NCBI GenBank assembly: GCA_964539785.1
Contig: CAZIJQ010000002.1
Location: 21,926 to 85,925 of the forward strand
Direction of reading: 5' to 3'
Length of the DNA: 64,000 nt
Origin: an uncultured bacterium
Lineage (GTDB): Bacteria; Fidelibacterota; Marinisomatia; Marinisomatales; TCS56
Shown here: piece by piece, positions 22,458 to 49,982 of the stretch
How positions within the stretch are numbered: position 1 is the stretch's first letter
How the letters are laid out: every line of letters starts with the position of its first letter
Translations under genes and position numbers: made by a program
The notes under the pieces: generated by a model
Told to the model about the DNA's origin: nothing
The model's input: the letters and a program-made list of their open reading frames with translations, nothing else
The model's database searches: none

Positions 22458-22480
22458 TATCGGACTTTTATAAAATATTT

Positions 22481-23749: not shown

Positions 23750-23765
23750 AATGTTTCCCTATTTA

Positions 23766-24773: not shown

Positions 24774-24777
24774 AGGT

Positions 24778-25323: not shown

Positions 25324-25337
25324 ATTGTATTCCTTTG

Positions 25338-27404: not shown

Positions 27405-27431
27405 AGACCTATTCCATTCCTTTTGGATTGA

Positions 27432-30400
27432 TTAAAAATTGTAGCTGAAATTGATCCCTAAGAAAACATCTCTCGGAGTCAAAAATGTAAAGAAAGTCTG
27501 ATCCGGCATATCAATATATGCTTTGGTGTCAAGGATATCATTCATCCTACCACTTGGAACAATGCTCCAGGTCCCATCGCTATATTCATAATACTCCTGA
27601 GTAGATCGTTCATAGTAAATCTCTAATTCACTTGGTGATATGGCATTATAATGCGTTATTACTGAAACGATAGGAACAAAATCGACGCCACTTTCACGCA
27701 CATCTCCTGGTTGGTCATCACCTGGAATATTTCCATAGCCTAATTTCTCTCCAACCTTTTCCGGAAGATGCAATGATTGCATATAATAATCGTAATCATG
27801 ACCATCCGAAAAAGACTCGGTTGAGAATCTTTTAATATCCAGGGCATTAAAAATGTCCAGAAAGAATTTTACGCTGAAACTATTGAAGTTAAATACTTTC
27901 GAAACCTTTAAATCCAGGTTGATATAATCTTTCCATTGCAGATTATATTGTATCCCGCTAACCTTATTGGGATTGTAGGTGAACCACCCCCCCGATGTCC
28001 AGCGACCAATGAAATTCAGATGCCAATCCCCCAGAATATATTGATCAAGTATGCTGGGACCAAACTTGTAAGGCGTGAATAGATCCAGATAACCCTTCAT
28101 CCTTGGTCTGGGTTTGGGTTTGGACTGATATCTACTTGCCAATTCGTATGTTAATTGGTCGCCAGGATGTTCATTATACTCTGCCAGGTTGAAATACCCC
28201 GAGCTCGAGACCCGATATTCATAATTGATCATTCCACGATACCAATCACCCCGACTCTTATTCAATTCGATTTCGAAACCACGGATATCGGAATAACTGT
28301 TGCTGGTCAATTGACGGAAATTCACTTTTCCATTCATACTGATATAGCGCGTCCAATCCTGCTGACGGGAGACATCTTTATAATAGCCTGCTAAATGAAC
28401 CAGAAACTGGTCATTTATCGCTTGATCGAAGCCCAGTTCGTAGGATATGGTACGGGCTGGAATTAGACTGGGGTCTCCCAAATAGGAAATAGACCCTACA
28501 CTATTGCGTTGAACCCGGTAGAGAGCTTCTGTTGTGGGTGATTGATTGAAATGACCATAATTAAAATACAATCGTGATGTTTCTGTAATTGGATGTGAGA
28601 TCCCTAGTCTAGGGCTGATTGTAATAACCGGGTCAGCATCCACTAAGTATTCCGAATCCCATATTTCATCTTCAGGGATTGAAATGAATTCATCATCATA
28701 AGGTTCAAAATCAAACCACTTTCCATTAGGATCGGAGTAGTCAACATTCAATCCCAGGGTTGAAATCAACCCTTTAAATTCGATTTTATCTTGGATATAT
28801 ACCAACAGACTGAATGGACTACGCGTGTAGTCATTCCACAGGTTGCCCTCTGGTAATACTTTGTTGATAGACCCGAATTTCATATGCATATCATGCATAA
28901 CAAATTCAAAACCGGTGTTTAACTGATTATGTGAATTAAACTGATTGGTGTACCCCAATCTAATTGAAGTCGTCTTTACTTCTGTTGAATCGCGGGAGGT
29001 CGAAATAGGACCACCCATGGTAAGGCCCCCATCTACACTTGAAAGAAATTCCTGCTCGTATCCAAATGGAGCCTCATCTACAAAATAGCCAGGAAAGATC
29101 TCCGTCAATGTTTCTGTATCCCGAAACGGTCCAGGACCTGTTCGATATGTCTTTTTTAAATGTTTCACTTGAATTTCATAAAACGATTTTAAATTGATTA
29201 TATGCGATAATTGAACTGCTGCAGACCAGTGATGGCGATCGGTTCTGGAATAATAATCACTAGTGAAGATTCTCCAAGGAATGGTAAATCCCGTTCGGTC
29301 AATCTGTTGTGCGACCCCAGTTACGGAACTGATATAGGATACTCCACCCGACCGGGAAAGATTAGTGGCTTGCATATCCCCCCAAAAGCTCGTCATCGAC
29401 AATTTGGTTTTATTAGAAATATCCGAAGTTACTTTAAGCATACTGTTCTCTTTATATACGCCATCAGTAGAGAGAGACATCAAATACATGTTCTGATTTT
29501 TGGTATAAGAATAATAAAACCGCAGATTGCCCAGCATTTTGCCTACTAAAGGTACAGGCCCACCAAAACCCAGATCGATATTAAAATCTGGATCCCGGAT
29601 GTAACCATCCTTGCGATGATGCCACATAAACAATTGTTTGACCGCTTGAGGTGTCAAATCATTGGTGGGATCATCATCAGTCAACAACGCTTGTGAGATT
29701 CCTACCCATCCACCATCAAACCCTGAATATTTTTGTACGGTGTAGTCATCCCACCCGGCATTATTGGTACCAAACCAGGCCACGCTATCCACGGTATATG
29801 GCAGAAGCCAATAAGAATTTGGATCAAAAACAGAGGAACCGAAATGTTTGGCTGCCGGCGGACTGTATTTATATGTTATTGTTGCAGCGTATTTGTCCGG
29901 ATCGCCTTCCTTGGTCACCACATTCACAATTCCAGATCGAACATTATGATACTCTGCGCTAAAACCGCCTGTCTGGATTGATACTTCCTTTACAGCGCTG
30001 AGAGGAATTCCAGTTATGGGAGAGTTATCTCTTTCATCTCTCAGCACCATACCGTCAACCATAAGCATCGTTTCGTCCGCATCACCACCACGAATCGCCA
30101 AATCACTAGAAATACCTGCTTTCAACCCTACTATTGAACCCAGACTAGTAAAAGGTAATTCTGCGATCTCGTCACTGGAAACGCTCAATTGACTGGCTGC
30201 TACATCCATCTTGATAATTTTTGCTTCTGCTACCACTGTTACACCTTCTCCTACCAAAACTTCTTCATCCATTGCAATATCAACATTTGTCGTCAAATCA
30301 ATTTCAACTCGAACATCGGTCACTGTAGTTCTGGTATATCCGATCATTGATATAACTAATTCATATACACCCGGTGTAACATTTAGAATGAAAAATTGAC

Positions 30401-30608
30401 CATTTATATCCGTGGCTGCTCCGAGATAAGTGTTTACCAGTTGAACATTCGCTCCAATAAGTGGATCACCAGTTCTTCCCTCAGTAATTCTACCGCTGAT
30501 TTTTCCTGTTACTGCACCAAATACATTCGTTGAGAATAATAATATGGATAAAACCCTGATGATTAGTTTCTTTGGTAATTGGGTGTGACTAAGCTTGGTC
30601 GTACTCAT
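27432..30608 (-). CDS. TonB-dependent outer-membrane receptor with N-terminal CarboxypepD_reg domain (module A)
   Basis: 1058 aa. It is colinear with the 1064-aa paralog: GKISGRITEGRTGDPLIGANVQL, IRGGDADETMLMVDG, IQTGGFSAEYHNVRSGIVNVVTKEG, and a C-terminal FSYNF. Confidence 0.8.
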   Translation of the reverse strand: MSTTKLSHTQLPKKLIIRVLSILLFSTNVFGAVTGKISGRITEGRTGDPLIGANVQLVNTYLGAATDINGQFFILNVTPGVYELVISMIGYTRTTVTDVRVEIDLTTNVDIAMDEEVLVGEGVTVVAEAKIIKMDVAASQLSVSSDEIAELPFTSLGSIVGLKAGISSDLAIRGGDADETMLMVDGMVLRDERDNSPITGIPLSAVKEVSIQTGGFSAEYHNVRSGIVNVVTKEGDPDKYAATITYKYSPPAAKHFGSSVFDPNSYWLLPYTVDSVAWFGTNNAGWDDYTVQKYSGFDGGWVGISQALLTDDDPTNDLTPQAVKQLFMWHHRKDGYIRDPDFNIDLGFGGPVPLVGKMLGNLRFYYSYTKNQNMYLMSLSTDGVYKENSMLKVTSDISNKTKLSMTSFWGDMQATNLSRSGGVSYISSVTGVAQQIDRTGFTIPWRIFTSDYYSRTDRHHWSAAVQLSHIINLKSFYEIQVKHLKKTYRTGPGPFRDTETLTEIFPGYFVDEAPFGYEQEFLSSVDGGLTMGGPISTSRDSTEVKTTSIRLGYTNQFNSHNQLNTGFEFVMHDMHMKFGSINKVLPEGNLWNDYTRSPFSLLVYIQDKIEFKGLISTLGLNVDYSDPNGKWFDFEPYDDEFISIPEDEIWDSEYLVDADPVITISPRLGISHPITETSRLYFNYGHFNQSPTTEALYRVQRNSVGSISYLGDPSLIPARTISYELGFDQAINDQFLVHLAGYYKDVSRQQDWTRYISMNGKVNFRQLTSNSYSDIRGFEIELNKSRGDWYRGMINYEYRVSSSGYFNLAEYNEHPGDQLTYELASRYQSKPKPRPRMKGYLDLFTPYKFGPSILDQYILGDWHLNFIGRWTSGGWFTYNPNKVSGIQYNLQWKDYINLDLKVSKVFNFNSFSVKFFLDIFNALDIKRFSTESFSDGHDYDYYMQSLHLPEKVGEKLGYGNIPGDDQPGDVRESGVDFVPIVSVITHYNAISPSELEIYYERSTQEYYEYSDGTWSIVPSGRMNDILDTKAYIDMPDQTFFTFLTPRDVFLGINFSYNF

Positions 30609-30763
30609 TCCGTATTATCCTCCAAACATATTGTTGAAATTTTTTTGCCGATTTTCCCATTCCGTGCAGAAAGGAAGTTATAACAAAAGATTTAAAAAAG
30701 AGAGTAATTAATTCAATTACTCCAGCCTGAGAATGAATCTCAAGTGTTCTGCTGTTAATTGAT

Positions 30764-31774
30764 TTAACTCGCATTATAAGCACGCACCGATTCGATCATA
30801 GCTTGAAAATTCTCAAGTTTCACATAATCGGGGATGCTATTTCCGGAGCCCACACAATAACCACCATTATAACCAACATTTTCAATATTAAATTTAACTT
30901 GCTTCCGAACATCTTCCACCGTTCCCAAGGCCAGTACATCACCAACATCAAGATTACCAATCAGGCATAATTTATCGCCATATTTCTGTTTTACTTCGAC
31001 TATATCCATTGCTTTAGGCTCAATTGGATGCAAGGCATCAACTCCACAACCCAATATATCTTCCATTACATCCCATAATATACCATCGCTATGATAAATA
31101 AGGGGCTTGTTATATTTCTCGGCCATCTCTCCTATTTTCTTCAGCCATGGGAAGAAATAACGACGCAGAACATCCGGGCTCATCATCAGTCCGGAATTAT
31201 AGGCAATATCGTCACTGTACCAGATGGCATCCACTACATCATTTTCGACAAAATACTCAAACATGCTGATCACAGGAGCAGCAATTTTGTCGATAATTGC
31301 CTGGATCAAATCCGGTTGATCAAAAGTTGCATAGGAAAACCCTTCAAACCCCATTAGCTCCCAGGCCATGGTAAATATATCACCATACTGACCAATCACT
31401 CCCATTCCTTCCGGCAATAAATCGCCAACCTGATCAAATACGGAATAATTGATCTGAGTTGCATCCGTAAACTCAAACTGTTCAAACTGGTCCCAGGTAG
31501 TGATTAGTCCCTGCCCTTCTGGTGCCCAGGTAATCGATTGGGTAATACTCTCATCGGAATTGTGACCGGGGATGTTGAAATCCGCCTGGGGTTGGAGTTT
31601 AATATAATCATATCCGGCTGAACGCCAGAAATGGATATCATCTTCAAGTGAAAGGATTGGTTTTCCCAAAAATTTCTCCTTGATAGTCGGATGAATCCCC
31701 AGCTCCACTAACGGAATGTGACTCCCTTTACCCCTTCGAAGAGTAAGTAGTAATTGCTCTATATCAGGACTCAC
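30764..31774 (-). CDS. Uroporphyrinogen-decarboxylase (URO-D) family protein, MtaA/CmuA-like methyltransferase candidate
   Basis: 336 aa. Overall pattern and the IYHSDG...DALHPIEP region are typical of URO-D-fold methylcobamide methyltransferases. The start codon appears to be GTG at 31774. Confidence 0.55.
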   Translation of the reverse strand: MSPDIEQLLLTLRRGKGSHIPLVELGIHPTIKEKFLGKPILSLEDDIHFWRSAGYDYIKLQPQADFNIPGHNSDESITQSITWAPEGQGLITTWDQFEQFEFTDATQINYSVFDQVGDLLPEGMGVIGQYGDIFTMAWELMGFEGFSYATFDQPDLIQAIIDKIAAPVISMFEYFVENDVVDAIWYSDDIAYNSGLMMSPDVLRRYFFPWLKKIGEMAEKYNKPLIYHSDGILWDVMEDILGCGVDALHPIEPKAMDIVEVKQKYGDKLCLIGNLDVGDVLALGTVEDVRKQVKFNIENVGYNGGYCVGSGNSIPDYVKLENFQAMIESVRAYNAS

Positions 31775-32085
31775 AACTCATCCTGGCCTGTGAGTTATTG
31801 GTTATTTACCAGTAAGGACATCAACATTAGTTCCGCAATCAGTTTCTGGCATCATAATCAATAGTCGAATCTGTCCAGTTTGCGTGAGAAGTTAGTATAA
31901 ACACCTGCAAAGAATGAATTGTTTTATTGAGAATATGATAAAATTACTAGTGGGCGTAACATCTTAATATTAATCAAGTAGTAGAATTATCAAAAACAAC
32001 CTGAAAACTCTATCCGGTATTTCCGAACAATTACAAATCGACAACAGTGCTGAAATGGCTCGTGATTACTTGGCAACCACCTGAA

Positions 32086-32949
32086 TCAGATATTCTTACT
32101 TAACGGCATAAATTTGCTGATTACAATTCCATCAAAACGCGGTTTGTTTTCTGGAAAATAATATTCCAGAAAATCTAGTTTGACAGTCTCTCCCGCCGAT
32201 TGCGAAGCGTGAATGAGATATTTATGATCTATGATCATTCCTTCATGGGCAAAGATTATCCCCATTTTATAATATTTCTCTTTTACAAAAGAAACTATGC
32301 ATACCTCGGGAATTTTTCTGAGTAGATCAGCATTTATCTGAGTATTGGGAATGTAGCCCAATTTAATAGGCCGGTTCCAGCCCAGGTTCAGGAATTCGCT
32401 CCCGTCTTCTTGGCGGTTAAGAGTAACCTCGGCAATTGCAATTTGGTCGGCTGGTAATAGCTTTTCAACTATGCTAATGGTATTGGGATTGGCAGTTACC
32501 CGGTCGGCGGTATAATGCCAGCGCGATTTATAGGTCGGCTTTTTTATACCCTGGGCATTTACTTTGTAGTGAATCTTAATCATATTATTCCTTGCAGCAG
32601 CCCAACTGTCACTCTGGGCAAAAGCAAGTGTCGTTAAAACATGTCCGGTGCAGTCCGAAACATCCAACCGAATAATCGGATCCAGGTCCGGTTCAATCTC
32701 TTCTCCCAGTTTGAATATTTCATAAGGGGTTCCAACCCGCCACAAAGCCAGTGCTTTTACGCGATCTTCAAATTTTGGAAAATGGTCCTGAAACTCTGGC
32801 AGCAAGATCGAAACTTCCGCTTCGGTTAGGGTCCATGGTTTTGGCAAAGTCTCCAGCCAATCCCAATGGTTTGTACAACTTATCAGCGCCATTAGAGTTA
32901 ATACAGAAATTAATCGAACCACGTTTTTAGGCATAAATACTCCAATCAT
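32086..32949 (-). CDS. Lipoprotein, DUF1460-like (amidase-like fold), function unknown
   Basis: 287 aa with lipobox ALISC. The segment GTPYEIFKLGEE...RLDVSDCTGHVLTTLAFA resembles the DUF1460 core as I remember it. This is a low-confidence family call. Confidence 0.4.
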   Translation of the reverse strand: MIGVFMPKNVVRLISVLTLMALISCTNHWDWLETLPKPWTLTEAEVSILLPEFQDHFPKFEDRVKALALWRVGTPYEIFKLGEEIEPDLDPIIRLDVSDCTGHVLTTLAFAQSDSWAAARNNMIKIHYKVNAQGIKKPTYKSRWHYTADRVTANPNTISIVEKLLPADQIAIAEVTLNRQEDGSEFLNLGWNRPIKLGYIPNTQINADLLRKIPEVCIVSFVKEKYYKMGIIFAHEGMIIDHKYLIHASQSAGETVKLDFLEYYFPENKPRFDGIVISKFMPLSKNI

Positions 32950-32961
32950 TAGAAATTCAAC

Positions 32962-33861
32962 TTACTCATTCTCTATTGTATCAACCACTTTTCTGATTGC
33001 ACGGATATGGTCTGGAGTTGTACCGCAACAACCACCAATAATTGAAACACCGGCAGAAATTAATTGTTGTACGCGATCAGCAAAAAAATCTGCTGACTCT
33101 TTATAAACCAGCCGACCATTTTGATTTTCCGGTTGACCTGCATTAGATTGAATTATGATCGGGGTATCGGTTACCTTATGAAATTCCCGGGCAATTTCGA
33201 TCATTTTATCAAGCCCGTTACCACAATTGGAACCGATGACATCAGCGCCGGCTTTTACCAGTGCTTCGACAGCATCAGCAATACTCACACCCATGATTGT
33301 AAAAAATCCCCGTGGCGTCGGATCAAAAGTCATGGTAGCGATAACCGGAATGCTCGGTGCTATTTTTCTCGCTGCCTGCACTGCAATTATCGCTTCATTA
33401 ATGTCGATCATAGTCTCAACACAGATCAGATCAACACCTGCACTAACCAAGGCGGAAATCTGACGCTCAAATCCGTCTTGCAATTCCGCTGGTGTACCAG
33501 CACCATAGGGCTCAAGCAATTTACCTGAAGGTCCGCAGGAACCGGATACCAGAACACCTTCCTTAACAGATTCTCTTACATAAGTCACTGCCAGGCTGTT
33601 TATTTCTTCGGTCTTTGCACCCAAATCATATTCAGATAGCTTAACCGCTGAACCTCCGAATGTATTGGTCTGCACAATGTCAGCTCCGGCCTCGGAATAG
33701 GACCGAGCTATTTCACGTAATAGATCTCCATGGGTCAGATTCAGGGTTTCCGGACAATCACCGGGATTCAAACCCTTTTCGAATAACGCCGTGCCCATGG
33801 CCCCATCTGAGACCAGAATCTGGCCTGCTTTGATACGCTTAATCAATGACTGCATAATCAC
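32962..33861 (-). CDS. Homocysteine S-methyltransferase domain protein (MetH N-terminal module / BHMT-like)
   Basis: 299 aa. N-terminal ILVSDGAMGT, with Zn-ligand Cys pattern GSNCGNG and GGCCGTTPDHI, characteristic of Pfam S-methyl_trans. Confidence 0.8.
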   Translation of the reverse strand: MIMQSLIKRIKAGQILVSDGAMGTALFEKGLNPGDCPETLNLTHGDLLREIARSYSEAGADIVQTNTFGGSAVKLSEYDLGAKTEEINSLAVTYVRESVKEGVLVSGSCGPSGKLLEPYGAGTPAELQDGFERQISALVSAGVDLICVETMIDINEAIIAVQAARKIAPSIPVIATMTFDPTPRGFFTIMGVSIADAVEALVKAGADVIGSNCGNGLDKMIEIAREFHKVTDTPIIIQSNAGQPENQNGRLVYKESADFFADRVQQLISAGVSIIGGCCGTTPDHIRAIRKVVDTIENE

Positions 33862-33870
33862 TTAATAAAT

Positions 33871-34497
33871 TTATAATTGTTTAACCCGTTCCACAGCGCT
33901 GGCAGCATCAAAGGCATAGGCATCGGCTCCAATTTCAGCGGCAAACTCTTCTGATGCCGGAGCTCCACCCACGATTACTTTAATCTGATCTTTCAATTTT
34001 TTTTGCTTGAGTAATTCTACCACATTATTCATCACTGGCATAGTCGTAGTCAGCAATGCCGACATACCAATAATTCCGGCTTTTTCGTTAATTGCTGTTT
34101 CCACAAATTTTTCCGGGCTGACATCCTTACCCAAGTCGATCACTTCAAATCCGGCTCCTTTAAGCATGATTCCCACCAGATTTTTTCCTATATCGTGCAA
34201 GTCCCCCTTGACGGTACCAATGACGACCTTACCCAATCCGGACTGCTCTGCCAGGGTCAGCAACGGTTTTAATAATTCCATTCCGGCCTGCATGGCGCGG
34301 GCTGCCAGAAGAACATCAGGAAGAAAAATTTCATGTGCTCTGAATTTTTCGCCAATAACATCCATTCCGGCAATTAAGGCCTGGTTTAATATTTGAGTTG
34401 CCGGTACCCCATTTTTCAAAGCTTGCTCAGTCAGGTCATGTACAGATTTGTCTTCCCCTTTTTCGAGTAAATCCGCAATCTGATTCAAGATTTCCAT
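33871..34497 (-). CDS. Corrinoid (cobalamin-binding) protein
   Basis: 208 aa with an N-terminal helical cap and a Rossmann B12-binding domain. It carries the DxHxxG motif (GDLHDIGKN) and a GMSALLTTT segment. Confidence 0.85.
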   Translation of the reverse strand: MEILNQIADLLEKGEDKSVHDLTEQALKNGVPATQILNQALIAGMDVIGEKFRAHEIFLPDVLLAARAMQAGMELLKPLLTLAEQSGLGKVVIGTVKGDLHDIGKNLVGIMLKGAGFEVIDLGKDVSPEKFVETAINEKAGIIGMSALLTTTMPVMNNVVELLKQKKLKDQIKVIVGGAPASEEFAAEIGADAYAFDAASAVERVKQL

Positions 34498-34508
34498 TGT
34501 TCAATCCT

Positions 34509-35213
34509 TTAGTCATTAAGTGATTTCAGTCGACTATAGCATGAGTATGTACGACAAACGCGACAGAAAGAAAAATTCGGTTTAAAAATGTGTATATCCG
34601 CCTCGCCAGCAATTAAAACACCGGTAACGGATTTTATTGGTTCCATTAAAAAGCTATCATTCAATATTATTCCGATTGTTTCCGGTTTCAGGTAACGAAA
34701 TAATTTTTTCTGACCGCTAATATGCCAGCCACAATAACCGGGACTATAACTCAATACTTTAATAGAATCATCCTGATTAGCGAAGGAAGCTTCATGATAT
34801 TGTTTTTCCATCATTCCGGCGGCATTATCCGCCGCCAGCGAAGCAACTGTATCCAAAGTATATCCCAGGGCAATGTCATTGGAACCCACCAGTTCTGCAA
34901 TCAGATTACTGACTTCGGCCCCCATTGTTATAGCAAACAAGGCCAGACGATCAGCATCAGGATAGATTCCACTTAAAGGAGCACTATTATCATTTTCTCC
35001 TTCACCAATAAAAATATCAGCAAATTCAGCATTTGTCAGTTCCTGTCGGATACCAATTGGTTGAGCCACTGCCGTGAAATTTTTCCGAGCTGTTTCGATC
35101 AAATTCATAACTTTGGATGAAATAGAATGGTCTTCCTTGACTCCCTGTTGTTTTAGAACTTCCTTAACTTCGGGCAATATTTCTGAAACTGCTATTGGAA
35201 TGGGAACTATCAT
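34509..35213 (-). CDS. Methionine-synthase activation-domain-like protein (Met_synt_B12-like)
   Basis: 234 aa. The SYSPGYCGWHISGQKKLF motif matches the RPAPGYPACPDH core of the MetH reactivation domain. The start overlaps the upstream stop by 1 nt (35213). Confidence 0.55.
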   Translation of the reverse strand: MIVPIPIAVSEILPEVKEVLKQQGVKEDHSISSKVMNLIETARKNFTAVAQPIGIRQELTNAEFADIFIGEGENDNSAPLSGIYPDADRLALFAITMGAEVSNLIAELVGSNDIALGYTLDTVASLAADNAAGMMEKQYHEASFANQDDSIKVLSYSPGYCGWHISGQKKLFRYLKPETIGIILNDSFLMEPIKSVTGVLIAGEADIHIFKPNFSFCRVCRTYSCYSRLKSLND

Positions 35214-36670
35214 TACACTAAGGCTGGAAATTTGTGCTGACCATATTTTCCAGCTTCATTTTTCATTCGTTCCCGTAAATCATTTTTAACTGATTCAGGT
35301 AGTGTGGATGGGGTATAATTTAATAGCATTCGATCCACTTCACCGGCAGCTCTACTCCCTAAATTTGTGCTGCCTTCTTCAATCCAGCGTGGTCGATTCG
35401 CCCGATCTATCACAGCGCCCGGGAAATAATGTTCCCTACGCAAATGCTTCCGGGTGTGATTTGATATCAGCAGGTGCTCATCACGCAATAACTCCTCTAA
35501 GATGAGAACAGCAGGAAAGTCGTCCCGCGGTGTAATACCGGCTACCATTCGCAGACACATCCCGGCAATTTCATTATCCAAAACTAATTTTTCCAGGCTT
35601 TGGCAACTTTCAAAATCCAGCATTCCCGGTCCGGAAATATTATTGATGCCAGATAAGGCCGCCAGGGTAGCTCCAATTCCTGTCTCCAGACCAGCCTGAG
35701 CATCCAGAATCTTAGCATCGCTGAGGGCAATGTAGGCCTGGGTCGGCAAACCAAGGCGTGTACCGATTTCGTTATTGGCACAGTCAATCATCATTGTCTC
35801 GATTGCTCCCATAGGAGTTGTCTCATAACGCACATCGAAAACAGCCGGTGAACCACCCCATAAAACCGGAGTTCCGGGGTTTGCTAATTGACTGATTACC
35901 AGACCGCTGAGTGTTTCAGCAGCATGTTGAATGATTGACCCGGTTAATGTAACCGGAGCGACAAATCCCGATAATGGCATGGAAATAAATTCCACTGGAA
36001 TTGAGTAACGGGCACAATCCACCAGGTTTTGCGAGGTAACATCACTCCACTTCAATGGTGATGTAGGGCAGCAGGAAAAGATAGTAAGCGGTTTTTCTTT
36101 TAAGGCTCGCTCAGAACCGCGGACTGCCAGTTGTAAATCCTTCATCACTTCAAATGCTTCGATGGTAAAGGCGCCTGTTACCACCGGCTTTTCTCCATAC
36201 AACAAGCTCAAATAAAGCCGATAACTATCCGATATTTTTTCATGCACATCAGCCGGTATGAAAGCCGTACTCTGGGATGCGATATTATCAAGCTGGCTAA
36301 TAATTTTCACATATTTGATATAATCATTAGTGTTGGGTTTTCGAATTTTCTGTGTCTTATGATCAAATATATTCAAGGCTGCTGATCCGGGAGTAAAATG
36401 AACTTTATCTCCGGAAAAATCATGGGTTTGTTGACCCAGCACATCATAAAGTGAAAACGATGATACTGCTGAATCCAGGGCAGTGTTTATTAACTGTTCA
36501 GGTATATAAGCCCTGGATTTTTCCATGTCGATCCGGGCACCATGATCTGCCAGCATCGCAAGAATTTCCGAATTGTTTATCTCTACGCCCAAAGAATCTA
36601 GAATGAGATAACTTTCAGCAATTATTTTTGATACAAGTTCGGGCGCTAAAAAATTCACTTTTGGCCGCAT
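35213..36670 (-). CDS. MttB-family (trimethylamine methyltransferase superfamily) methyltransferase, non-pyrrolysine type
   Basis: 485-aa uninterrupted ORF with MttB-superfamily colinearity (N-terminal FLAPELVSKIIAESYLILDSLGVEI; SCCPTSPLKW; GGSPAVFDVRYETTPMG). There is no in-frame TAG. Confidence 0.8.
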   Translation of the reverse strand: MRPKVNFLAPELVSKIIAESYLILDSLGVEINNSEILAMLADHGARIDMEKSRAYIPEQLINTALDSAVSSFSLYDVLGQQTHDFSGDKVHFTPGSAALNIFDHKTQKIRKPNTNDYIKYVKIISQLDNIASQSTAFIPADVHEKISDSYRLYLSLLYGEKPVVTGAFTIEAFEVMKDLQLAVRGSERALKEKPLTIFSCCPTSPLKWSDVTSQNLVDCARYSIPVEFISMPLSGFVAPVTLTGSIIQHAAETLSGLVISQLANPGTPVLWGGSPAVFDVRYETTPMGAIETMMIDCANNEIGTRLGLPTQAYIALSDAKILDAQAGLETGIGATLAALSGINNISGPGMLDFESCQSLEKLVLDNEIAGMCLRMVAGITPRDDFPAVLILEELLRDEHLLISNHTRKHLRREHYFPGAVIDRANRPRWIEEGSTNLGSRAAGEVDRMLLNYTPSTLPESVKNDLRERMKNEAGKYGQHKFPALV

Positions 36671-36979
36671 TATTTTCTCCTTAATCCGAAAATGACTAAC
36701 TCAATATTCAGGCACTGTGTTTAAACGTCTAAATCCTCCAAAAGGGAGTGGAATATAAGAAATCCAATTCAAATGTTATATTAAGTATTTGACTATAAAA
36801 ATGGGCGGTACCGCCAAATATCAATTTCGTCCTGTTAATCAATATTCAATTATATCGATTAAAAATTCAGGCCAATTAAAATATATTAATGATTCCAATT
36901 AGTGCCATGGCGTGAGAATTACTATAAATCATCGATATCTGGCCTAGTTAATATTTTTATTGGATTATACTTCGTCAGA

Positions 36980-37459
36980 TTATTTTTTATACTTTATCAA
37001 TATACTATGCCAGCGCTCGAGATCTCTGGTTGATGAATTAACCGCATCAATAAGTTTCCGTACATGAAATGGTTTTAAAAAATAATTATCAAATCCAACA
37101 GCTCGGGCTTTCCGCAAATCAAACAATTCACCGTAACCGGTTATAGCATAAATATAGGCCACCGGGTTACTGTCTTTAATAATTTTACATAATTCTATTC
37201 CAGACATACCTGGCAATTTCAAATCCAGAAAAAACATATAAATTTTTTGGTGCTTTAATATATTAAGGGCTTCATCGGCGGTTCCTGCCACATGCACTTT
37301 ATAGCCTTCATTAACAAAAGCTGTTCTTAAGATTTCCTGTATTGCCAAATCGTCATCTACAACCAGGATGGATTTTAATGAGTCTTGAAAAATCATATTT
37401 AAATTTATTGAATTATTAATTAACCAAAGCGAATTTAGGTTATGTAGGTCAAAATTCAA
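36980..37459 (-). CDS. Stand-alone response-regulator receiver domain protein
   Basis: ILVVDDDLAIQEIL...FLDLKLPGMSG...AITGYG...KPF is the CheY-like receiver pattern. The true start may be the internal Met at about 37396. Confidence 0.7.
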   Translation of the reverse strand: MNFDLHNLNSLWLINNSINLNMIFQDSLKSILVVDDDLAIQEILRTAFVNEGYKVHVAGTADEALNILKHQKIYMFFLDLKLPGMSGIELCKIIKDSNPVAYIYAITGYGELFDLRKARAVGFDNYFLKPFHVRKLIDAVNSSTRDLERWHSILIKYKK

Positions 37460-37545
37460 TTATTATTTCTAGAATTAATACCGAATAATTGTAATCTACT
37501 AATCAAACGACATCATCCACAGATACAGCCAATAGGATATTAGGT

Positions 37546-37580
37546 AACCTTCCAGGACTTAAAAAAAGACCTGGAAGGTT
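37546..37580 (-). terminator. Stem-loop downstream of the PrpD-family gene (possible operon terminator)
   Basis: AACCTTCCAGG / CCTGGAAGGTT, an 11-bp perfect stem with an A/T-rich 13-nt loop, 15 nt after the stop at 37595. There is no strong minus-strand U-tract, so the call is tentative. Confidence 0.4.
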
Positions 37581-37594
37581 TTCATCGAATTAAA

Positions 37595-39034
37595 TCAAAT
37601 CGTAACTACCATCTGACCCATGAAGTCGCGGGCGCTCATGGTTTCGCAATTGAAGATTGTATCTTTCAACTGACTCAGCTCTTCTTCATTGAAAAGACCA
37701 GCCGCCAGAGAATTGAACTTATTCTCCAAATCTGCCATGGTCATGGGTTCACGGGGATCGCCCTTGGGATATTCCAGGTATTCGGAATAATCCTTACCAT
37801 CATTAGTGGTAACAACAACCCTGGAAGGTTGCTTGGCCGGGAACATCTTTTCAAATTCCTGCGAGGGCTCACCCACAATTTTATCAATCACTTCAAAAAT
37901 TCTGGGATCATTCAATTTTTCATCTGAAAATGAGTCAGTCGTAATTTTCTTATCCACCATGGCCGCTGCCAGGCAATAGGGCAGCGAATGATCAGCCGTT
38001 TCCCTTGATTCAGGACGGTACTTGGTCGGATCGAATAAAATATCGTAAGCCTGGGCAAAACAAGTTACCTTAACTTCCTTAATATCCGTGTATTCCAGGT
38101 TATTATTGATCATGGCTTTGAGCAAACAGGATATATGCGTATGGGTTAGCGCTTCCGTTGGAAAAGCTTTCATGCCACATTCCAGAATTTTGAAATCCTT
38201 GCCCAGGTTACCAACCAATGCATCCACATCCCAACTCCAGGATGAGATACCATCACGGCCTTCCATATCGGTTGGTTTGATCAATTCTTCTTTGGCATCC
38301 CAACCGATGAAGGCATCCATGAAACCTTCTTTCCCTTCGAAGACTTTCTCAGTACCGGAATAGCCTTTCTGGGCCATTAGTGCGGCGAATACGCCCGACT
38401 GAACTGCCATGGGATCGACGGTGTTTTTCATCATCGTGAGTTTACCAGCAGTGGGACAGCCAATTGTATGGTTATGGCAACCGGAAATACCGATGGCATT
38501 CACCATCTCATCAACGGTCAGACCAAGAATTTTACCGGCCACGATCGGTGACACGAACTGGGTCAGGGTGCCGTGATGCCATTTCCGTTCGCGCACACCG
38601 GGTTTGGCAAATAGACACATACGCTGTTCGAATTCATAAGCCAGTACAATCGCCACGATCACATCCTTCATGGAGGCGTTAACTTTTTCCGCCATCGTTA
38701 GCGCTGCTGGGATAATATCACTGGGATGACTCGGGTCATCTTTCCAATAGATGTCGTTGAAATCCAGAGCTCGGATCATCAAGGAATTCACCAGAGTGGC
38801 ATTGACGGCTGGAATTTCATCGCCAAAACCGATGACAGTAGCCTCTTCCCTGCCACCCATTTCCTCATAAATTTCATGGATGGTGTTCACATCCAAGGTA
38901 TGCATACTACCGAAAGCGCAACCAAATGAATCATACAGGTAACGTTTGACCTCCGTAATTACTTCCGGAGGTAGATCTTCGTATTTTAAGTCAACGGCAA
39001 ATTCAGCTATCTGCCGGGATATGGATTTACTCAT
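37595..39034 (-). CDS. MmgE/PrpD family protein (2-methylcitrate dehydratase family)
   Basis: 479 aa. The N-terminal IAEFAVDLKYEDLPPEVITEVKRYLYDSFGCAFG is the typical PrpD-family opening, and the rest is colinear with the family. Confidence 0.8.
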   Translation of the reverse strand: MSKSISRQIAEFAVDLKYEDLPPEVITEVKRYLYDSFGCAFGSMHTLDVNTIHEIYEEMGGREEATVIGFGDEIPAVNATLVNSLMIRALDFNDIYWKDDPSHPSDIIPAALTMAEKVNASMKDVIVAIVLAYEFEQRMCLFAKPGVRERKWHHGTLTQFVSPIVAGKILGLTVDEMVNAIGISGCHNHTIGCPTAGKLTMMKNTVDPMAVQSGVFAALMAQKGYSGTEKVFEGKEGFMDAFIGWDAKEELIKPTDMEGRDGISSWSWDVDALVGNLGKDFKILECGMKAFPTEALTHTHISCLLKAMINNNLEYTDIKEVKVTCFAQAYDILFDPTKYRPESRETADHSLPYCLAAAMVDKKITTDSFSDEKLNDPRIFEVIDKIVGEPSQEFEKMFPAKQPSRVVVTTNDGKDYSEYLEYPKGDPREPMTMADLENKFNSLAAGLFNEEELSQLKDTIFNCETMSARDFMGQMVVTI

Positions 39035-39051
39035 AACAATTCCTATTAGTT

Positions 39052-39150
39052 AACCACAGATTACACAGATTTTCACTGATTTTATTGCTTAATCTTTGAA
39101 TTAGAACATTCTTTAAATAATGTTCTGTGTAATCAGTGCAATCTGTGGTT
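39052..39150. repeat. Iteron-armed inverted-repeat element E1 (99 bp, non-coding)
   Basis: Left arm AAC-CACAGATTA-CACAGATTTT-CACTGATT (39052-39081). Right arm CTGTG-TAATCAGTG-CAATCTGTG-GTT (39125-39150). An inner stem AGAACATT/AATGTTCT is also present. Confidence 0.9.
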
Positions 39151-39158
39151 TCAATTTC

Positions 39159-40355
39159 TTAAAGTTTGGCGATGATTGCGTCAGCCATTTCAATGGTAGA
39201 AGCGGCACCTTTTTCTATCACATCGGAACGACCAACCATTTTAGCCATATCATAAGTCCTGACTTTGCCTTCTGCCACAATTTCAGCAACTGCTTTCCTG
39301 ATCTTCGTAGCAATTTCCTGTTCATCGATGAAATCAAGCATCATGCAGGCCGATTCGATCATGGCAATCGGATTGACGATTGAGACGGGATAATCGGCAT
39401 ATTTAGGAGCGCTGCCGTGGGTAGGCTCGAAAACGCCAATACCAGTTTCGGGATTATACTGGGCGCTGCAGGCAAAACCAAGCCCACCAATCAGTCCCGC
39501 AAAGCCATCGGATACAATATCACCGAACATATTACCGGCCACGATTACGCCATAATTTTCCGGATTCTTGGTTAGCCACATCATCTGGGCGTCGATATTG
39601 GTATTCCAGACTTCGATCTCAGGGAAATCGGATTTCTGAATCTGCTGGGCCATCTTGTACATCATACCTGATGTTTCGCGAATAACATTCGGTTTTTCGC
39701 AAACGGTCACTGATTTGTAACCATTTTTTTTAGCGTGTTCAAAGGCTGCCCGCAGAATTCTTTCAGTAGCTTTCTTAGTAAATATTCTGGTTGAAACGGA
39801 GAGTTCCTCGACCGGAGTGTCACCGAAATTCTTCATAAATTTGGGATGGGTCATGAGGGCATCGTGAACCTGTGCCGGCGGATTACTCCATTCGACGCCA
39901 CCATAAAGTCCTTCGGTATTCTGCCGAAAAATGGCGACATCCACTTCCGGTTCCTCGACCGTGTCCTCGGGACCTCTTCGGATAAAGTTCAGCGGATTGC
40001 CTTTATAAGTCCGGCAGGGGCGCAGGCAGATATCCAGACCAAAATGCTGGCGCAGGCCAACGATCGGACTTGAATACACTAGTTCCTGTTCCTTCAATTC
40101 TGGTCCTAACTCTTCGAATGCTTCGTCTTTGGGTTTAGAGGTGATTGCACCAAAAAGGCCAATCTTATGTTCCGCAATCAAATCCAAGGTTCGCTGAGGT
40201 AAGGGATTACCTTCATTGCACCAGAATTCCCAGCCGATATCGCCTTCTACATAATTTGCTTCAAACCCGGCGGCTTCCAACACACGGATGGTCTCTTCCA
40301 ACACAACCTTGCCAATGCCATCTCCGGGTAGAGCTACAATTGTTCGTTTAGCCAT
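39159..40355 (-). CDS. Isocitrate/isopropylmalate dehydrogenase family protein (probable isocitrate dehydrogenase)
   Basis: 398 aa with LPGDGIGKVV, NTEGLYGG and NMFGDIVSDGFAGLIGGLG (the family signature). Substrate specificity cannot be decided by eye. Confidence 0.75.
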   Translation of the reverse strand: MAKRTIVALPGDGIGKVVLEETIRVLEAAGFEANYVEGDIGWEFWCNEGNPLPQRTLDLIAEHKIGLFGAITSKPKDEAFEELGPELKEQELVYSSPIVGLRQHFGLDICLRPCRTYKGNPLNFIRRGPEDTVEEPEVDVAIFRQNTEGLYGGVEWSNPPAQVHDALMTHPKFMKNFGDTPVEELSVSTRIFTKKATERILRAAFEHAKKNGYKSVTVCEKPNVIRETSGMMYKMAQQIQKSDFPEIEVWNTNIDAQMMWLTKNPENYGVIVAGNMFGDIVSDGFAGLIGGLGFACSAQYNPETGIGVFEPTHGSAPKYADYPVSIVNPIAMIESACMMLDFIDEQEIATKIRKAVAEIVAEGKVRTYDMAKMVGRSDVIEKGAASTIEMADAIIAKL

Positions 40356-40371
40356 TTCAATTTCCTTATTT

Positions 40372-40500
40372 AACCACTAATTACACAAATTTCACTGATT
40401 TGTTTTGCGTATTTATTGGTTTGTTTACTTTATTCAATTTTTTTCTATGTAATCTGCCTGCCCAACGTAGTTGCAACGCAGTTGGGTGAATTCAGTGGTT
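40372..40500. repeat. Iteron-armed inverted-repeat element E2a (129 bp) with a 30-nt hairpin nested in its right arm
   Basis: Left arm AAC-CACTAATTA-CACAAATTT-CACTGATT (40372-40400). The right arm CTATGTAATCTG...TGAATTCAGTGGTT is interrupted at 40457-40486 by CCTGCCCAACGTAGTTGCAACGCAGTTGGG. Confidence 0.85.
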
Positions 40501-40524
40501 TTCTTTTTCTTAATCAATCTATTT

Positions 40525-40621
40525 AACCACTAATTACACAAATTTCACTGATTTATTTTGCGCATTTATTGATTTGTCTATTTTATTCAAATTTTCTGTG
40601 TAATCCGTGAAATCAGTGGTT
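40525..40621. repeat. Iteron-armed inverted-repeat element E2b (97 bp), direct tandem copy of E2a
   Basis: The left arm is identical to E2a (40525-40553). Right arm CTGTG-TAATCCGTG-AAATCAGTG-GTT (40596-40621). The spacer is nearly identical to E2a. Confidence 0.9.
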
Positions 40622-42591
40622 TACTTAATCTTTTCTTTCACCCAGTTTTCCAATCCTTCCGTCAAGATCAATTCCTGGGCGGCTGCACCGACCGCACCAA
40701 TCGAATAGGTTTTTCCACCACAAGTAAGTTGGACTGATTGAAAATCAATTTCGATTTTGAGATCGGTTCGCACTGTCAATTTTTTGGTGCCGTATTTCAC
40801 TTTCAGATCTTCTAACAATTCCGGTGCTTCCATTACTAGATAGCCATTATTGATGGCGTTGCGTTTGTAGGTCTGGCTGAATGATCCGGCCAGGACCAGT
40901 TGAATCCCCCGGTATTTCAAGGCCGTGGCGGCCTGTTCCCGGGAACTGCCAGCACCAAAATTAAAGCCACCGACTAGAATATCACCGCTCCGCGCTATTT
41001 TACCAAATTCAGTATCGTAATTTTCCATGACAACTTCAGCCTGTTGCTCGGGCGTGAAATCATCGATGTAGGTATACTTGCCGGGATAGATACCATCGGT
41101 ATTAAGATTATCCAAATGACAGAAAATCACCGTACCCGATAACTTAGCCGGGAAGCCATCCAGCAGATTGGCAATGACCGCTTCTCGCTTAGAAACCGGC
41201 GCAACCGTAATACTGGTATTTACTGCTGTTTCGTTAAATGGGACAGGTCCAGCTATTTTGCCAGCCAGGGCGCTGGCAGCAACCACCGCTGGCGATGCCA
41301 GATAAGCTTCCGCTTCCTTTGAACCCATTCGACCTTTGAAATTGCGATTAGTGGCGGATATACCAACTTCACCATCCTGCAGCAATCCGACACCCAAGCC
41401 AATGCAGGGACCGCAGCCCGGTGGAATTGCGATGGCTCCAGCTTCTAAAAGAGTCTGCCAGTCACCGCGCCGCACGCTTTCTTCCTGTACTTCCCGGGAG
41501 GCAGCTGCGATATAAAATTCCACTCCTTCAGCAACTTTTTTTCCCTTTACAACAGCGGCAGCCTCCGCCAGATCATCCACGCGACTGTTCACACAGGATA
41601 CCAGATAAGCCTTGTGGATTTTCAGATTACGCTTTTCCATATCCGTCACGGAGGTCATTGTTTTAACATTGTGAGGACCAGAAACATGCGGACTGACAGA
41701 AGACAAATCAATTGTCAATTCTTTGGCGTAATAAGCATCCGAATCGGCTGCGGGAATGTTGGCTTCCAGTGCAGCGATACGAGCTTGACTCAAACGGGGA
41801 TGAGTACCGTTGCCATCGATATCGGAAGGCACGCCTTCCAGCCCGCGTTTTTCAATTGTCGCTGACCGATCATAAAGCCATTTAATCGTGATTTCATCAA
41901 TGGGAAACAATCCAACTAAGGCACCCCATTCGGTAGTCATGTTGGCAATTGCCAGACGCTCATCAATTTTGAGACTTGCTACACCTGCGCCAGCAAATTC
42001 GATGGCATGATTCAATACTTCATCATGATTAAAAATACCACAAAGGGTGATGATTAAATCTTTGCCGGTAACACCAGCCGGTAGCTTGCCAATCAGTTTT
42101 ACCTTCGCCACCGGCGGCACCTGCCACCAGGTACGACCCGTGGCCCAGATTGCAGCCGCATCGGTTCGTACGATCGGGGTACCAAGACAGCCCAAGCCAC
42201 CGTACATATTGGCATGGCTGTCGGAGGCTACGGCCATTGTACCGGGAAAAGCATAGCCTTCCTCCAACATCAACTGATGACCGATACCACGACCAGCGGG
42301 ATAAAAATCGACACCCATTTCTTTGGCGAACGCTTCGATCCCGGCATATTTTTTAAGGTTAGCTTTACTTTTATCCTGAACATTATGATCCAGGGCAAAC
42401 ATGGGTTGACGAGGATCGGATATCTTGCTGGCGCCAATCGCCCGAAACTTATTCATCACCGCACCTGTATTATCATGGGTTAGAATATGGGCGGGCTGGA
42501 TTGAAAGGTAATCCCCGGCATGTACTTGAGTACCTTCAGCTAAATCGACGGCGTATTTTTGGGCAAGTTTTTCTACTAAGTTCTGTTTCAT
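40621..42591 (-). CDS. Aconitase-family hydro-lyase, fused large+small (swivel) domains (aconitate hydratase/homoaconitase type)
   Basis: 656 aa. ASDSHANMYGGLG, VSCVNSR and PGCGPCIG (Fe-S Cys ligands) are followed by the swivel-domain motif GFNFGAGSSREQAA. Length and fusion resemble the short Aquifex-type aconitases. Confidence 0.8.
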   Translation of the reverse strand: MKQNLVEKLAQKYAVDLAEGTQVHAGDYLSIQPAHILTHDNTGAVMNKFRAIGASKISDPRQPMFALDHNVQDKSKANLKKYAGIEAFAKEMGVDFYPAGRGIGHQLMLEEGYAFPGTMAVASDSHANMYGGLGCLGTPIVRTDAAAIWATGRTWWQVPPVAKVKLIGKLPAGVTGKDLIITLCGIFNHDEVLNHAIEFAGAGVASLKIDERLAIANMTTEWGALVGLFPIDEITIKWLYDRSATIEKRGLEGVPSDIDGNGTHPRLSQARIAALEANIPAADSDAYYAKELTIDLSSVSPHVSGPHNVKTMTSVTDMEKRNLKIHKAYLVSCVNSRVDDLAEAAAVVKGKKVAEGVEFYIAAASREVQEESVRRGDWQTLLEAGAIAIPPGCGPCIGLGVGLLQDGEVGISATNRNFKGRMGSKEAEAYLASPAVVAASALAGKIAGPVPFNETAVNTSITVAPVSKREAVIANLLDGFPAKLSGTVIFCHLDNLNTDGIYPGKYTYIDDFTPEQQAEVVMENYDTEFGKIARSGDILVGGFNFGAGSSREQAATALKYRGIQLVLAGSFSQTYKRNAINNGYLVMEAPELLEDLKVKYGTKKLTVRTDLKIEIDFQSVQLTCGGKTYSIGAVGAAAQELILTEGLENWVKEKIK

Positions 42592-42598
42592 TTGTTTT

Positions 42599-43027: not shown

Positions 43028-43029
43028 AC

Positions 43030-43563: not shown

Positions 43564-43579
43564 TTTTAATCCTTTATTT

Positions 43580-43738
43580 AACCACTAATTACACAGATTT
43601 CACAGATTAATGCGAAACTAATCGAAATAATGGTACAGCTAATTTTATTCAATTTTTTCCACTGATTACTCTAAAGCAAATCTTTAAGGTTACTATATTC
43701 ATAATGTTTTTTCTGTGTAATCAGTGAAATCTGTGGTT
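43580..43738. repeat. Iteron-armed inverted-repeat element E4 (159 bp, non-coding)
   Basis: Left arm AAC-CACTAATTA-CACAGATTT-CACAGATT (43580-43608). Right arm CTGTG-TAATCAGTG-AAATCTGTG-GTT (43713-43738). An extra internal CCACTGATTAC lies near 43669. Confidence 0.9.
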
Positions 43739-45297: not shown

Positions 45298-45304
45298 TAA
45301 TTTT

Positions 45305-49129: not shown

Positions 49130-49251
49130 CTTTCCATATTCCGTATTCTACCGTTCAATACATTCAACCAGCTATCATTACTACTTCTGGAAGCAGGTTA
49201 TATTTACACCAATTTTCTAACAGTTATTCTAACACCAGAGTGATTCCGACA

Positions 49252-49981: not shown

Positions 49982-49982
49982 C

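Follow-up and report, generated by a model that had tools for sequence, protein, structure and literature searches.

A conserved four-gene corrinoid operon that may link an MttB-family methyltransferase to homocysteine methylation without folate

Where does the methyl group go when an MttB-family methyltransferase is encoded beside a homocysteine module and not beside a pterin-binding protein? The question is raised by four contiguous genes, about 3.7 kb in all, on the minus strand of a 64,000-nucleotide (nt) stretch of DNA from an uncultured bacterium of the Fidelibacterota (GenBank assembly GCA_964539785.1, contig CAZIJQ010000002.1, positions 21,926 to 85,925). The whole stretch is called the window here, and positions are counted from its first letter. 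An earlier reading of the letters (the original prediction) had described a corrinoid methyl-transfer operon. Its four open reading frames (ORFs) and their order were recovered at the same coordinates on the minus strand, and its domain calls were borne out by Pfam for all four proteins. We propose, with a probability of roughly 0.6, that the four genes encode a self-contained three-step corrinoid relay, which would serve as an alternative methionine synthase lacking a folate module. The parts are as follows.

35213..36670, minus strand: non-pyrrolysine MttB-superfamily methyltransferase of 485 amino acids (aa), by Pfam MTTB; putative first methyltransferase (MT1)
34509..35213, minus strand: Act, a MetH-reactivation-domain (TM0269-like) protein of 234 aa, by Pfam and by an AlphaFold2 (AF2) model compared with Foldseek; putative Co(II) repair
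33871..34497, minus strand: Cor, a corrinoid (cobalamin-binding) protein of 208 aa with cap and Rossmann domains, by Pfam; putative methyl shuttle
32962..33861, minus strand: Hcy, a homocysteine S-methyltransferase domain protein of 299 aa, by Pfam; putative second methyltransferase (MT2)
36671..36979, minus strand: upstream intergenic region of 309 nt, presumed site of the promoter and 5′ leader

The MttB stop codon overlaps the ATG of Act (TAATG at 35213), and the other gaps downstream of Act are 11, 9 and 12 nt, the last of them lying between the Hcy gene and a gene for an AmiA-like protein. AAGGAG is located 8 nt upstream of the MttB ATG. From its GTG start, Hcy has 299 aa; gene callers put the start two codons in, at the ATG at 33855, and the protein is probably the 297-aa product of that start. 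Rfam was searched over the whole window at gathering thresholds, over 30500-37700 at E ≤ 1, and at nine diverse loci. No riboswitch was detected in the 309-nt upstream region, either at gathering thresholds or at E ≤ 1, and the counts from promoter and terminator scans, this region included, did not exceed the expectation from shuffled sequence.

The last gene of the operon points to the acceptor. Its product matched the Pfam family S-methyl_trans (PF02574) with 235.9 bits over the full length of the profile (positions 1-283 of 283), and its zinc triad of C213, C278 and C279 (codons 33223-33225 and 33025-33030) was kept in 47 of 47 orthologues. The best PDB match was the homocysteine domain of Thermotoga maritima MetH (1q7m, 173 bits), which aligned from end to end. 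C213 aligned with the Cys at chain residue 207 of that protein, which we take to be a zinc ligand. The motifs DGAMGT and GGCCGTTP were kept as well. In the NCBIfam comparison the protein scored 282 bits with the N-terminal half of YitJ, 215 with the rhizobial 'BHMT' PRK07534, 174 with MetH and 103 with PRK09485, while no pterin-binding match was obtained for it in the profile searches. The full-length PF02574 match, the Cys triad and the lack of a pterin-binding match agree with the earlier assignment of this 299-aa protein as homocysteine-type and not pterin-binding. By its domain it is predicted to be a homocysteine S-methyltransferase of the MetH N-terminal type, with putative specificity for homocysteine.

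Cor carries a B12-binding domain (102.6 bits) and a B12-binding_2 domain (79.6 bits). Its His-on motif is DLHDIG (residues 99-104, encoded at 34186-34203), so that both the DxHxxG motif and the zinc Cys triad named in the original prediction are present. D99, H101, G104, S146, L148 and G177-G178, which make up the DxHxxG, SxL and GG motifs, were kept in all 51 orthologues aligned. The best NCBIfam match was MtgC_2 (223 bits), ahead of pyl_corrinoid (203) and MetH (153); among PDB entries 1y80 gave 198 bits, MttC 151 and MetH about 110. Because the scores of Cor did not reach the equivalog cut-offs of MtgC, MtbC and MtaC, no substrate-specific assignment is possible. Judged by these scores, it is nearer to the methylamine- and MtgC-type carriers than to the B12 domain of MetH. 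The operon had been likened to a MetH disassembled into separate polypeptides; the comparison is apt as a functional analogy and fails as a statement of descent, since Cor resembles methylamine-type carriers and scores higher against MtgC_2 and 1y80 than against MetH.

The conservation of the arrangement was then assessed. At least 563 species-representative genomes contain an orthologue of the window MttB, at 66-74% identity. For the synteny sample the best 80 orthologous loci were taken, and these bear more than 20 phylum-level labels, including Cloacimonadota, Neomarinimicrobiota/Fidelibacterota, Planctomycetota, Ignavibacteria, Acidobacteriota/Aminicenantes, Gemmatimonadota, WOR-3, TA06, Zixibacteria, Elusimicrobiota and Calditrichia. 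A locus was counted as informative where 2.6 kb or more of sequence lay downstream of the MttB gene (n = 63), and these loci were searched by tblastn with the window proteins. Act, Cor and Hcy followed in the window order in 49 of the 63; Cor and Hcy without Act were present in six, Act and Cor without Hcy in two, and Cor alone in one. Such a distribution goes far past what chance would give. Catalytic residues of all four proteins were essentially invariant across loci. More divergent MttB homologues were obtained by searching the representatives of clusters formed at 50% identity. A 55%-identical homologue had the window order, one of 46% identity lay in the order Cor-Hcy-Act-MttB and one of 48% in the order Hcy-Act-MttB, such rearranged orders being seen at loci L088/L089; beside a 50%-identical homologue (L086) the Cor gene was inverted. 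The survival of the association through rearrangement is strong evidence for functional coupling. The cross-phylum synteny and these rearranged orders thus uphold the original claim that an MttB-family enzyme is wired to a homocysteine module, and the functional coupling of the MttB-type enzyme to homocysteine methylation is well supported.

The canonical MttB pathway delivers methyl groups to tetrahydrofolate through MtgA or MtgD, together with RamA. Of the 43 window ORFs of at least 150 aa, 41 were scanned, and none of these encodes a pterin-binding methyltransferase, RamA, MetH, MetE or methylenetetrahydrofolate reductase (MTHFR). Across the 80 loci, clustering of the ORFs within 7 kb on either side revealed no recurrent transporter, BCCT, OpuA, Pterin_bind, MTHFR or RamA gene. 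The canonical pathway was rejected for this locus on these two results, which agree with the earlier remark that no MtgA-type or RamA-type gene lies nearby. In a Pfam census of 114 immediate flanking genes, the commonest neighbour was the homocysteine-forming family Cys_Met_Meta_PP, with four genes. Given that no other neighbour family recurs, the four-gene module appears autonomous. The flanking genes were also considered as a clue to the methyl donor and set aside, as neither the clustering nor the census returned a recurrent transporter or pathway gene.

Two observations were made at individual loci. In a Phycisphaerae metagenome-assembled genome (MAG; locus L013), two copies of the Acido-Lenti-1 RNA motif (RF01687) lie directly upstream of the MttB orthologue, at 6685-6730 (minus strand, 66 bits) and 6840-6886 (plus strand, 41 bits); the motif was not seen in the window. 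At locus L082 (2123-3550), an MttB homologue of 56% identity, which belongs to a sister subfamily and shares the pocket signature, has no Cor or Hcy partner; the gene after it is of the NhaC-type Na+/H+ antiporter family (PF03553).

The proposed relay has three steps. In the first, as expected from its family, the TIM barrel of the MttB-family protein would bind a methylated nitrogen compound, and Co(I) Cor would abstract one methyl group. In the second, suggested by family and by the conserved zinc ligands, methyl-Co(III) Cor would dock on the Hcy enzyme, where a zinc-activated homocysteine thiolate would accept the methyl group to give methionine and Co(I). In the third, suggested by fold, Cor oxidised to Co(II) would be restored by Act through reductive methylation with S-adenosylmethionine (SAM). 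Flavodoxin or ferredoxin would supply the electron, and a Cys cluster of Act may bind the receiving metal centre. This direction of transfer, with homocysteine as acceptor and repair dependent on SAM, is predicted from the domains, the motifs and the four-gene linkage observed.

Act itself matched the Pfam family Met_synt_B12 (PF02965) with 36.1 bits (cut-off 25) over a part of the profile, positions 120-250 of 273, and matched PDB entry 1j6r by sequence with an E value of 7e-4. An AF2 model was obtained with a predicted local distance difference test (pLDDT) score of 91. Foldseek placed it closest to TM0269 of T. maritima (E 4e-12, template-modelling (TM) scores 0.70/0.82), followed by the reactivation domains of E. 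coli, Thermus and human MetH (E 5e-8 to 4.5e-4). As modelled, Act is a genuine MetH-reactivation-domain fold. Residues P158, G159 and Y160 of its (S)PGY motif were invariant in an alignment of 29 sequences. Moreover, Act contains a set of conserved Cys residues: C161 in YSPGYCGWH (codon 34731-34733), and C217, C220 and C225 in FCxxCxxxxCxxR (34539-34565). Among 56 orthologues C161 was invariant and the other three were present in 54-55, while H164 and H208 were kept in about 85-90%. The C-terminal CxxCxxxxC also occurs in divergent Act-like partners (L083, L088), and the Cys motif of YSPGYCGWH is not found in the aligned SPGY region of TM0269. The cluster probably forms a metal site, either Fe-S or zinc.

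The donor is the remaining part of the question. The 485-aa protein matched Pfam MTTB (PF06253) over residues 3-469 with 244.6 bits (cut-off 25). It was compared with its relatives by pairwise scores to solved structures and by a signature table of 100 sequences. MtgB (2qne/9yce) was the top structural match (186 bits), followed by MttB (7xcl, 167 bits); the sole solved Proteobacteria-type homologue compared, 4yyc, which is presumably from Sinorhizobium, gave 96 bits. Identity to MtgB of Desulfitobacterium hafniense was 29%. The score against TIGR02369, the equivalog of pyrrolysine-containing (Pyl) MttB, was 349 bits, under the cut-off of 525. The ORF has no in-frame stop or UAG, Leu316 (CTC) occupies the pyrrolysine position of Methanosarcina barkeri MttB, and Ser346 stands at the position of Tyr364 of Pyl-MttB. 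On these four points, identity with the pyrrolysine-dependent trimethylamine methyltransferase was rejected.

A match to the Rfam model PYLIS_3 was observed inside this ORF, at 35626-35724 on the minus strand (43.4 bits, gathering threshold 38), starting at the Leu316 codon, the one that aligns with the Pyl UAG. The same match was seen in four of the nine orthologous loci searched (L001 7940-8039, L015 7948-8045, L061 7946-8045 and L065 7948-8045). A functional element was rejected because there is no UAG and the folding energy was no better than that of shuffled sequences (z = 0.16). The match is probably conserved coding sequence, which suggests that the PYLIS_3 model partly captures protein-coding conservation.

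The glycine betaine site of D. hafniense MtgB is known from a ligand-bound structure and from mutagenesis: the cation-pi contacts come from Y97 and F356, and the carboxylate is held by R312 and H348 (Picking et al. 2026; PMC13080624). Every characterised acidic-quaternary-amine enzyme has kept R312, and the R312L change abolishes activity (PMC13080624). In HMMER and MAFFT alignments, Y97, R312, H348 and F356 of MtgB corresponded to S96, Q311, S346 and E354 of the window protein, a signature invariant in 69-71 of 71 orthologues; residue 316 was Leu in 66 of these and Met in five. The pocket signature of the window protein comprises S96, Q311, L316, S346 and D352-F353-E354. As Pyl-MttB has G110, a Tyr, Y364 and G372 at the four positions, the pocket matches neither the pyrrolysine-type nor the betaine-type enzymes. 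The motif PT(Q/H)xY...SDxK, together with Ser96 and Ser346, marks a broad uncharacterised clade of 36-67% identity in which Arg is rare at the R312 position. Membership among MtgB and the other acidic-quaternary-amine enzymes (MtcB, MtpB, MtyB and MthB) was rejected because Arg312, His348 and Tyr97/Phe356 are all replaced.

These residues bear directly on one alternative, in which an acidic quaternary amine (glycine betaine, carnitine, proline betaine, gamma-butyrobetaine or phosphocholine) donates the methyl group and the operon is a corrinoid-dependent equivalent of betaine-homocysteine methyltransferase (BHMT). Substrates of this kind are used by every characterised non-Pyl member of the MttB family (PMC13080624), the best NCBIfam match of Cor is MtgC_2, and MtgB is the top PDB match of the MttB homologue. 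However, identity to MtgB is low, the invariant replacements include the Arg whose loss kills the activity of MtgB, and the flank survey revealed neither a betaine transporter nor downstream dimethylglycine or sarcosine genes linked to the cluster. We consider this alternative improbable. Glycine betaine and other acidic betaines are unlikely donors, since the aromatic pair and the Arg and His of the glycine betaine site are missing, which favours a non-acidic methylamine over glycine betaine, carnitine and proline betaine. The 'quaternary amine' donor of the original prediction, which had family membership as its sole basis, is not upheld by this pocket.

A more specific version of the relay can be put forward tentatively, and we regard it as doubtful in its full form. 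In it, the clade marked by S96/Q311/S346/E354 would, without pyrrolysine, take methyl groups from an endogenous N-methyl metabolite or from a methylamine that is not acidic, and together with Cor, Hcy and a metal-bearing reactivase would form a stand-alone, folate-independent methionine synthase that is the main or sole route in some uncultured anaerobic phyla. Candidate donors in this version are trimethylamine, choline-type compounds and tetramethylammonium.

The idea of a corrinoid-dependent methionine synthesis around this cluster is not new. According to Williams et al. 2022, MAGs of Ca. Electryoneota contain the same four-gene cluster, which is also present in diverse bacteria, and the authors hypothesised a novel corrinoid-dependent synthesis of methionine with an unknown donor (PMC9324843). 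That cluster shares all four components with the window, including an MttB from a clade separate from MtgB and MttB (PMC9324843). One of the MAGs, Ca. Hatepunaea meridiana, is locus L039 of our sample, where MttB, Act, Cor and Hcy are 69, 46, 64 and 56% identical to the window proteins and the genes for Cor and Hcy lie 1.5 kb apart. The closest named relatives of the window belong to Ca. Marinimicrobia/Neomarinimicrobiota, whereas those genomes are Ca. Electryoneota (PMC9324843). In the available text the hypothesis stands without a biochemical test, a pocket analysis or a mention of the Cys motif of Act (PMC9324843). The novelty implied by the original prediction therefore falls, as both the cluster and the hypothesis were published before (PMC9324843), and there is a precedent for a corrinoid protein shared between the two kinds of module (PMC12478193). 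What is added here is the quantified cross-phylum synteny, including rearranged variants, and the finding that no transporter, pterin module or RamA is linked in the flanks of 80 loci. In addition, a pocket signature that would exclude the known betaine-binding mode is described, and the model supports the MetH-type fold of the reactivase, with its conserved Cys motif.

Several observations weigh against the relay as a methionine synthase. Both MAGs of Williams et al. also encode a full-length MetH (PMC9324843), so methionine synthesis need not depend on the cluster. No biochemical or genetic characterisation of any cluster member was found in the searchable literature. No SAM riboswitch, cobalamin riboswitch or T-box was found by Rfam before the operon, in the window or at the nine diverse loci, and hence no regulatory tie of the operon to methionine was found. 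The MttB orthologue had no partner nearby at five of the 63 informative loci, and Act was not nearby at six. The AdoMet-binding motif of MetH is, as we take it, RxxxGY (RPAPGY in E. coli). The Arg of this motif is not conserved in the Act family, where only SPGY is kept, which leaves the use of SAM by Act uncertain. Finally, the known substrate-binding signature was not present in the window MttB in the alignments against MtgB.

The full-length MetH of those two MAGs (PMC9324843) also counts against a second alternative, in which the MttB-like barrel binds an endogenous methyl carrier, such as 5-methyl-tetrahydrofolate or another N-methyl metabolite, and the operon is a housekeeping synthase, not a scavenging one. 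The orthologue identity of 66-74% across phyla would be unusual for a substrate-scavenging enzyme, and no transporter is linked. The residues that contact betaine in MtgB are smaller or polar here, and the pocket may accordingly be larger. Some sediment MAGs, moreover, are reported to have MttB as their sole B12 methyltransferase and no MetH (PMC12484752). To this alternative we give little credence as it stands.

A third alternative is that the demethylation is catabolic or detoxifying, with homocysteine and methionine acting as a methyl sink or a shuttle of the SAM cycle, or that the Hcy-type enzyme acts on another thiol or a selenol. PF02574 also holds selenocysteine- and S-methylmethionine-dependent enzymes. 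URO-D-family genes, typical of corrinoid thiol and O-methyl transferases, lie beside MttB at L077, L078 and L086 and in the window, and the MttB/corrinoid system of Ruegeria pomeroyi is mainly catabolic (PMC12478193). On the other hand, Hcy aligns end to end with the homocysteine domains of MetH and has kept DGAMGT and GGCCGTTP, no methyl-oxidation genes (MTHFR, pterin methyltransferase) are linked, and methionine would be a poor bulk sink for methyl groups. This reading is not likely. Hardly credible is a merely accidental adjacency, with Hcy a SAM- or S-methylmethionine-dependent enzyme of the MmuM/YagD type and MttB, Cor and Act a separate unit whose acceptor enzyme is encoded elsewhere: the weaker PRK09485 (homocysteine S-methyltransferase) match, the two loci of Act and Cor without Hcy and the five with MttB alone fit it, but Hcy and Cor occur together in 55 of the 63 loci and again in the rearranged divergent clusters, no alternative MT2 (pterin-binding or MtaA-type) is linked, and Hcy is more similar to MetH-type than to MmuM-type sequences.

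The proposed relay was further compared with characterised systems. An MtgB-MtgC-MtgA system, with RamA, was reportedly described by Ticak et al. in 2014 as a glycine betaine:tetrahydrofolate system of D. hafniense. The window shares with it a non-pyrrolysine MttB-superfamily MT1 and a cognate DxHxxG corrinoid protein, whereas the acceptor there is the pterin-binding MtgA and the activase is RamA-type, in place of the Hcy acceptor and MetH-type activase of the window (PMC13080624). In R. pomeroyi, genetic evidence indicates that a single corrinoid protein, MtgC, serves MtgB, the pterin-binding MtgD and the homocysteine enzyme MtgE (Mausz et al. 2025; PMC12478193). There, too, an MttB-family enzyme and a homocysteine module share one carrier, and demethylation of a methylamine is linked to methionine synthesis. 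However, in MtgBCDE (R. pomeroyi; compare the split MetH of Phaeobacter inhibens) the pterin-binding MtgD is essential for both functions, reactivation depends on RamA and DUF1638, the genes are scattered with mtgE usually unlinked, the donor is glycine betaine and the hosts are aerobic Proteobacteria. The window, on the contrary, has neither a linked pterin module nor RamA, has reactivation of the MetH/TM0269 type, and holds its genes in one operon.

The homocysteine, B12 and reactivation modules of MetH are all represented in the operon, and the split MetH of T. maritima (TM0268 with TM0269) likewise has its reactivation module as a separate polypeptide. The function of TM0269 goes back to Huang et al. 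2007, as cited in PMC7857596. In contrast to MetH, the operon lacks the pterin-binding (folate) module, has the MttB barrel in its place and encodes every module as a separate protein; in contrast to TM0269, Act has the extra conserved Cys motif. According to the same paper, the 'core' methionine synthases MesA-D also convert homocysteine to methionine with no folate-binding domain, and methyl-corrinoid proteins are their probable methyl source (Price et al. 2021; PMC7857596). They are related to MetE and not to PF02574, and the paper mentions neither MttB nor trimethylamine (PMC7857596). BHMT, of the human and SAR11 type, has the PF02574 zinc homocysteine domain and forms methionine from a methylated amine and homocysteine; it differs in transferring the methyl group directly, without a corrinoid, and matched Hcy over residues 5-214 alone (about 80 bits).

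If the relay operates as proposed, methyl groups of methionine and SAM would come directly from methylated amines, bypassing folate, in many bacteria of sediments, marine waters and bioreactors, among them Marinimicrobia, Cloacimonadota, Phycisphaerae, Aminicenantes, Gemmatimonadota, Zixibacteria and WOR-3. The turnover of osmolytes and methylamines and the demand for vitamin B12 would then be tied to amino-acid biosynthesis. The MttB superfamily would gain a new substrate class, given a pocket unlike that of either the pyrrolysine or the betaine enzymes, and the methylotrophic corrinoid proteins would have a second, RamA-independent mode of reactivation. The compact four-gene module and its conserved catalytic residues make the proposal directly testable.

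Two genes downstream of the operon had been suggested to belong to the system.

32086..32949, minus strand: AmiA-like (PF07313/DUF1460) predicted lipoprotein, by Pfam AmiA-like (65 bits)
30764..31774, minus strand: URO-D/MtaA-family protein of 336 aa, by Pfam URO-D (95 bits)

The former is the 'DUF1460-like' protein of the original prediction, now named AmiA-like (PF07313) in Pfam. Judged from the sequence, it starts with a signal peptide that has a lipobox (LISC). The gene lies 12 nt downstream of the Hcy gene and is probably co-transcribed with the operon, and the URO-D-like gene follows 311 nt further on. The URO-D-like protein scored 74 bits against the MtaA/CmuA family, where the cut-off is 235, and 35 bits against MtaA (4ay7); the zinc ligands HxC...C are replaced by H228-S-D230...Asn. 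Its assignment as an MtaA/MtbA-type zinc thiol methyltransferase was rejected on the sub-cut-off score and on these HSD...N residues. The AmiA-like gene was absent from all 80 cross-phylum loci, and the URO-D-like gene was absent from them except for two weak cases, L077 (Verrucomicrobiota MAG, 5524-7029) and L078 (Gemmatimonadales MAG, 4118-5188). In both, a URO-D-family gene lies directly upstream of a 68%-identical MttB orthologue that has no Cor, Hcy or Act nearby, a hint that this MttB clade may pair with URO-D-type proteins instead.

Both genes recur together solely at the related locus L086 (Logan contig SRR13694707), where MttB, Act, Hcy, the AmiA-like gene, the URO-D-like gene and a CarboxypepD_reg/TonB-like receptor are arranged as in the window at 27432-36670. 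The AmiA-like and URO-D-like proteins of the two loci are 67% identical, compared with 50, 44, 53 and 54% for MttB, Act, Cor and Hcy. Either the core genes of L086 diverged faster than their neighbours or they were replaced by another variant at the same site. The pattern fits synteny within a lineage, with at most an accessory role for the two genes; the URO-D-like protein is possibly an accessory corrinoid methyltransferase. As components of the system they were rejected, since they are not conserved across phyla, the MtaA zinc ligands are replaced and they appear to be lineage-specific neighbours; the suggestion that they belong to it did not stand.

The wider window was also annotated. Its contig is present in JGI sample 3300009431 as well. 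Upstream of the operon, at 37595-46770 on the minus strand, lies a block of organic-acid genes: an MmgE/PrpD-family gene, an isocitrate/isopropylmalate dehydrogenase, an aconitase-family gene, CitF, and an acyl-carrier domain (Pfam ACP/MdcD) fused to a citrate lyase beta-like HpcH/HpaI domain. Between this block and the MttB gene is a gene for a receiver-only response regulator (36980-37459). Neither the block nor the regulator is conserved beside the cluster at other loci. Further upstream, at 47379-50504 (minus strand), two paired P-loop NTPases of the MinD/CbiA type, into which 4Fe-4S ferredoxin motifs are inserted, are encoded near a DUF134 gene, with one ORF between. At 3414-5431 (minus strand), two tandem glyceraldehyde-3-phosphate dehydrogenase paralogues of 333 and 339 aa overlap by 4 nt. 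The window also encodes receptors of the CarboxypepD_reg/TonB kind and sorting domains of the type IX secretion system (T9SS), and it has a PorV-like match that is weak and sub-threshold. Taken with the nearest named homologues, these features suggest a Marinimicrobia-like bacterium of the FCB group. At 17067-30608 (minus strand), two CarboxypepD_reg/Plug TonB-dependent-receptor-like genes, for products of 1064 and 1058 aa, each precede a gene for a protein of about 700 aa without a Pfam match, and the PorV-like gene and a TIG-domain gene lie between the two units. This layout resembles SusC/SusD-style uptake loci.

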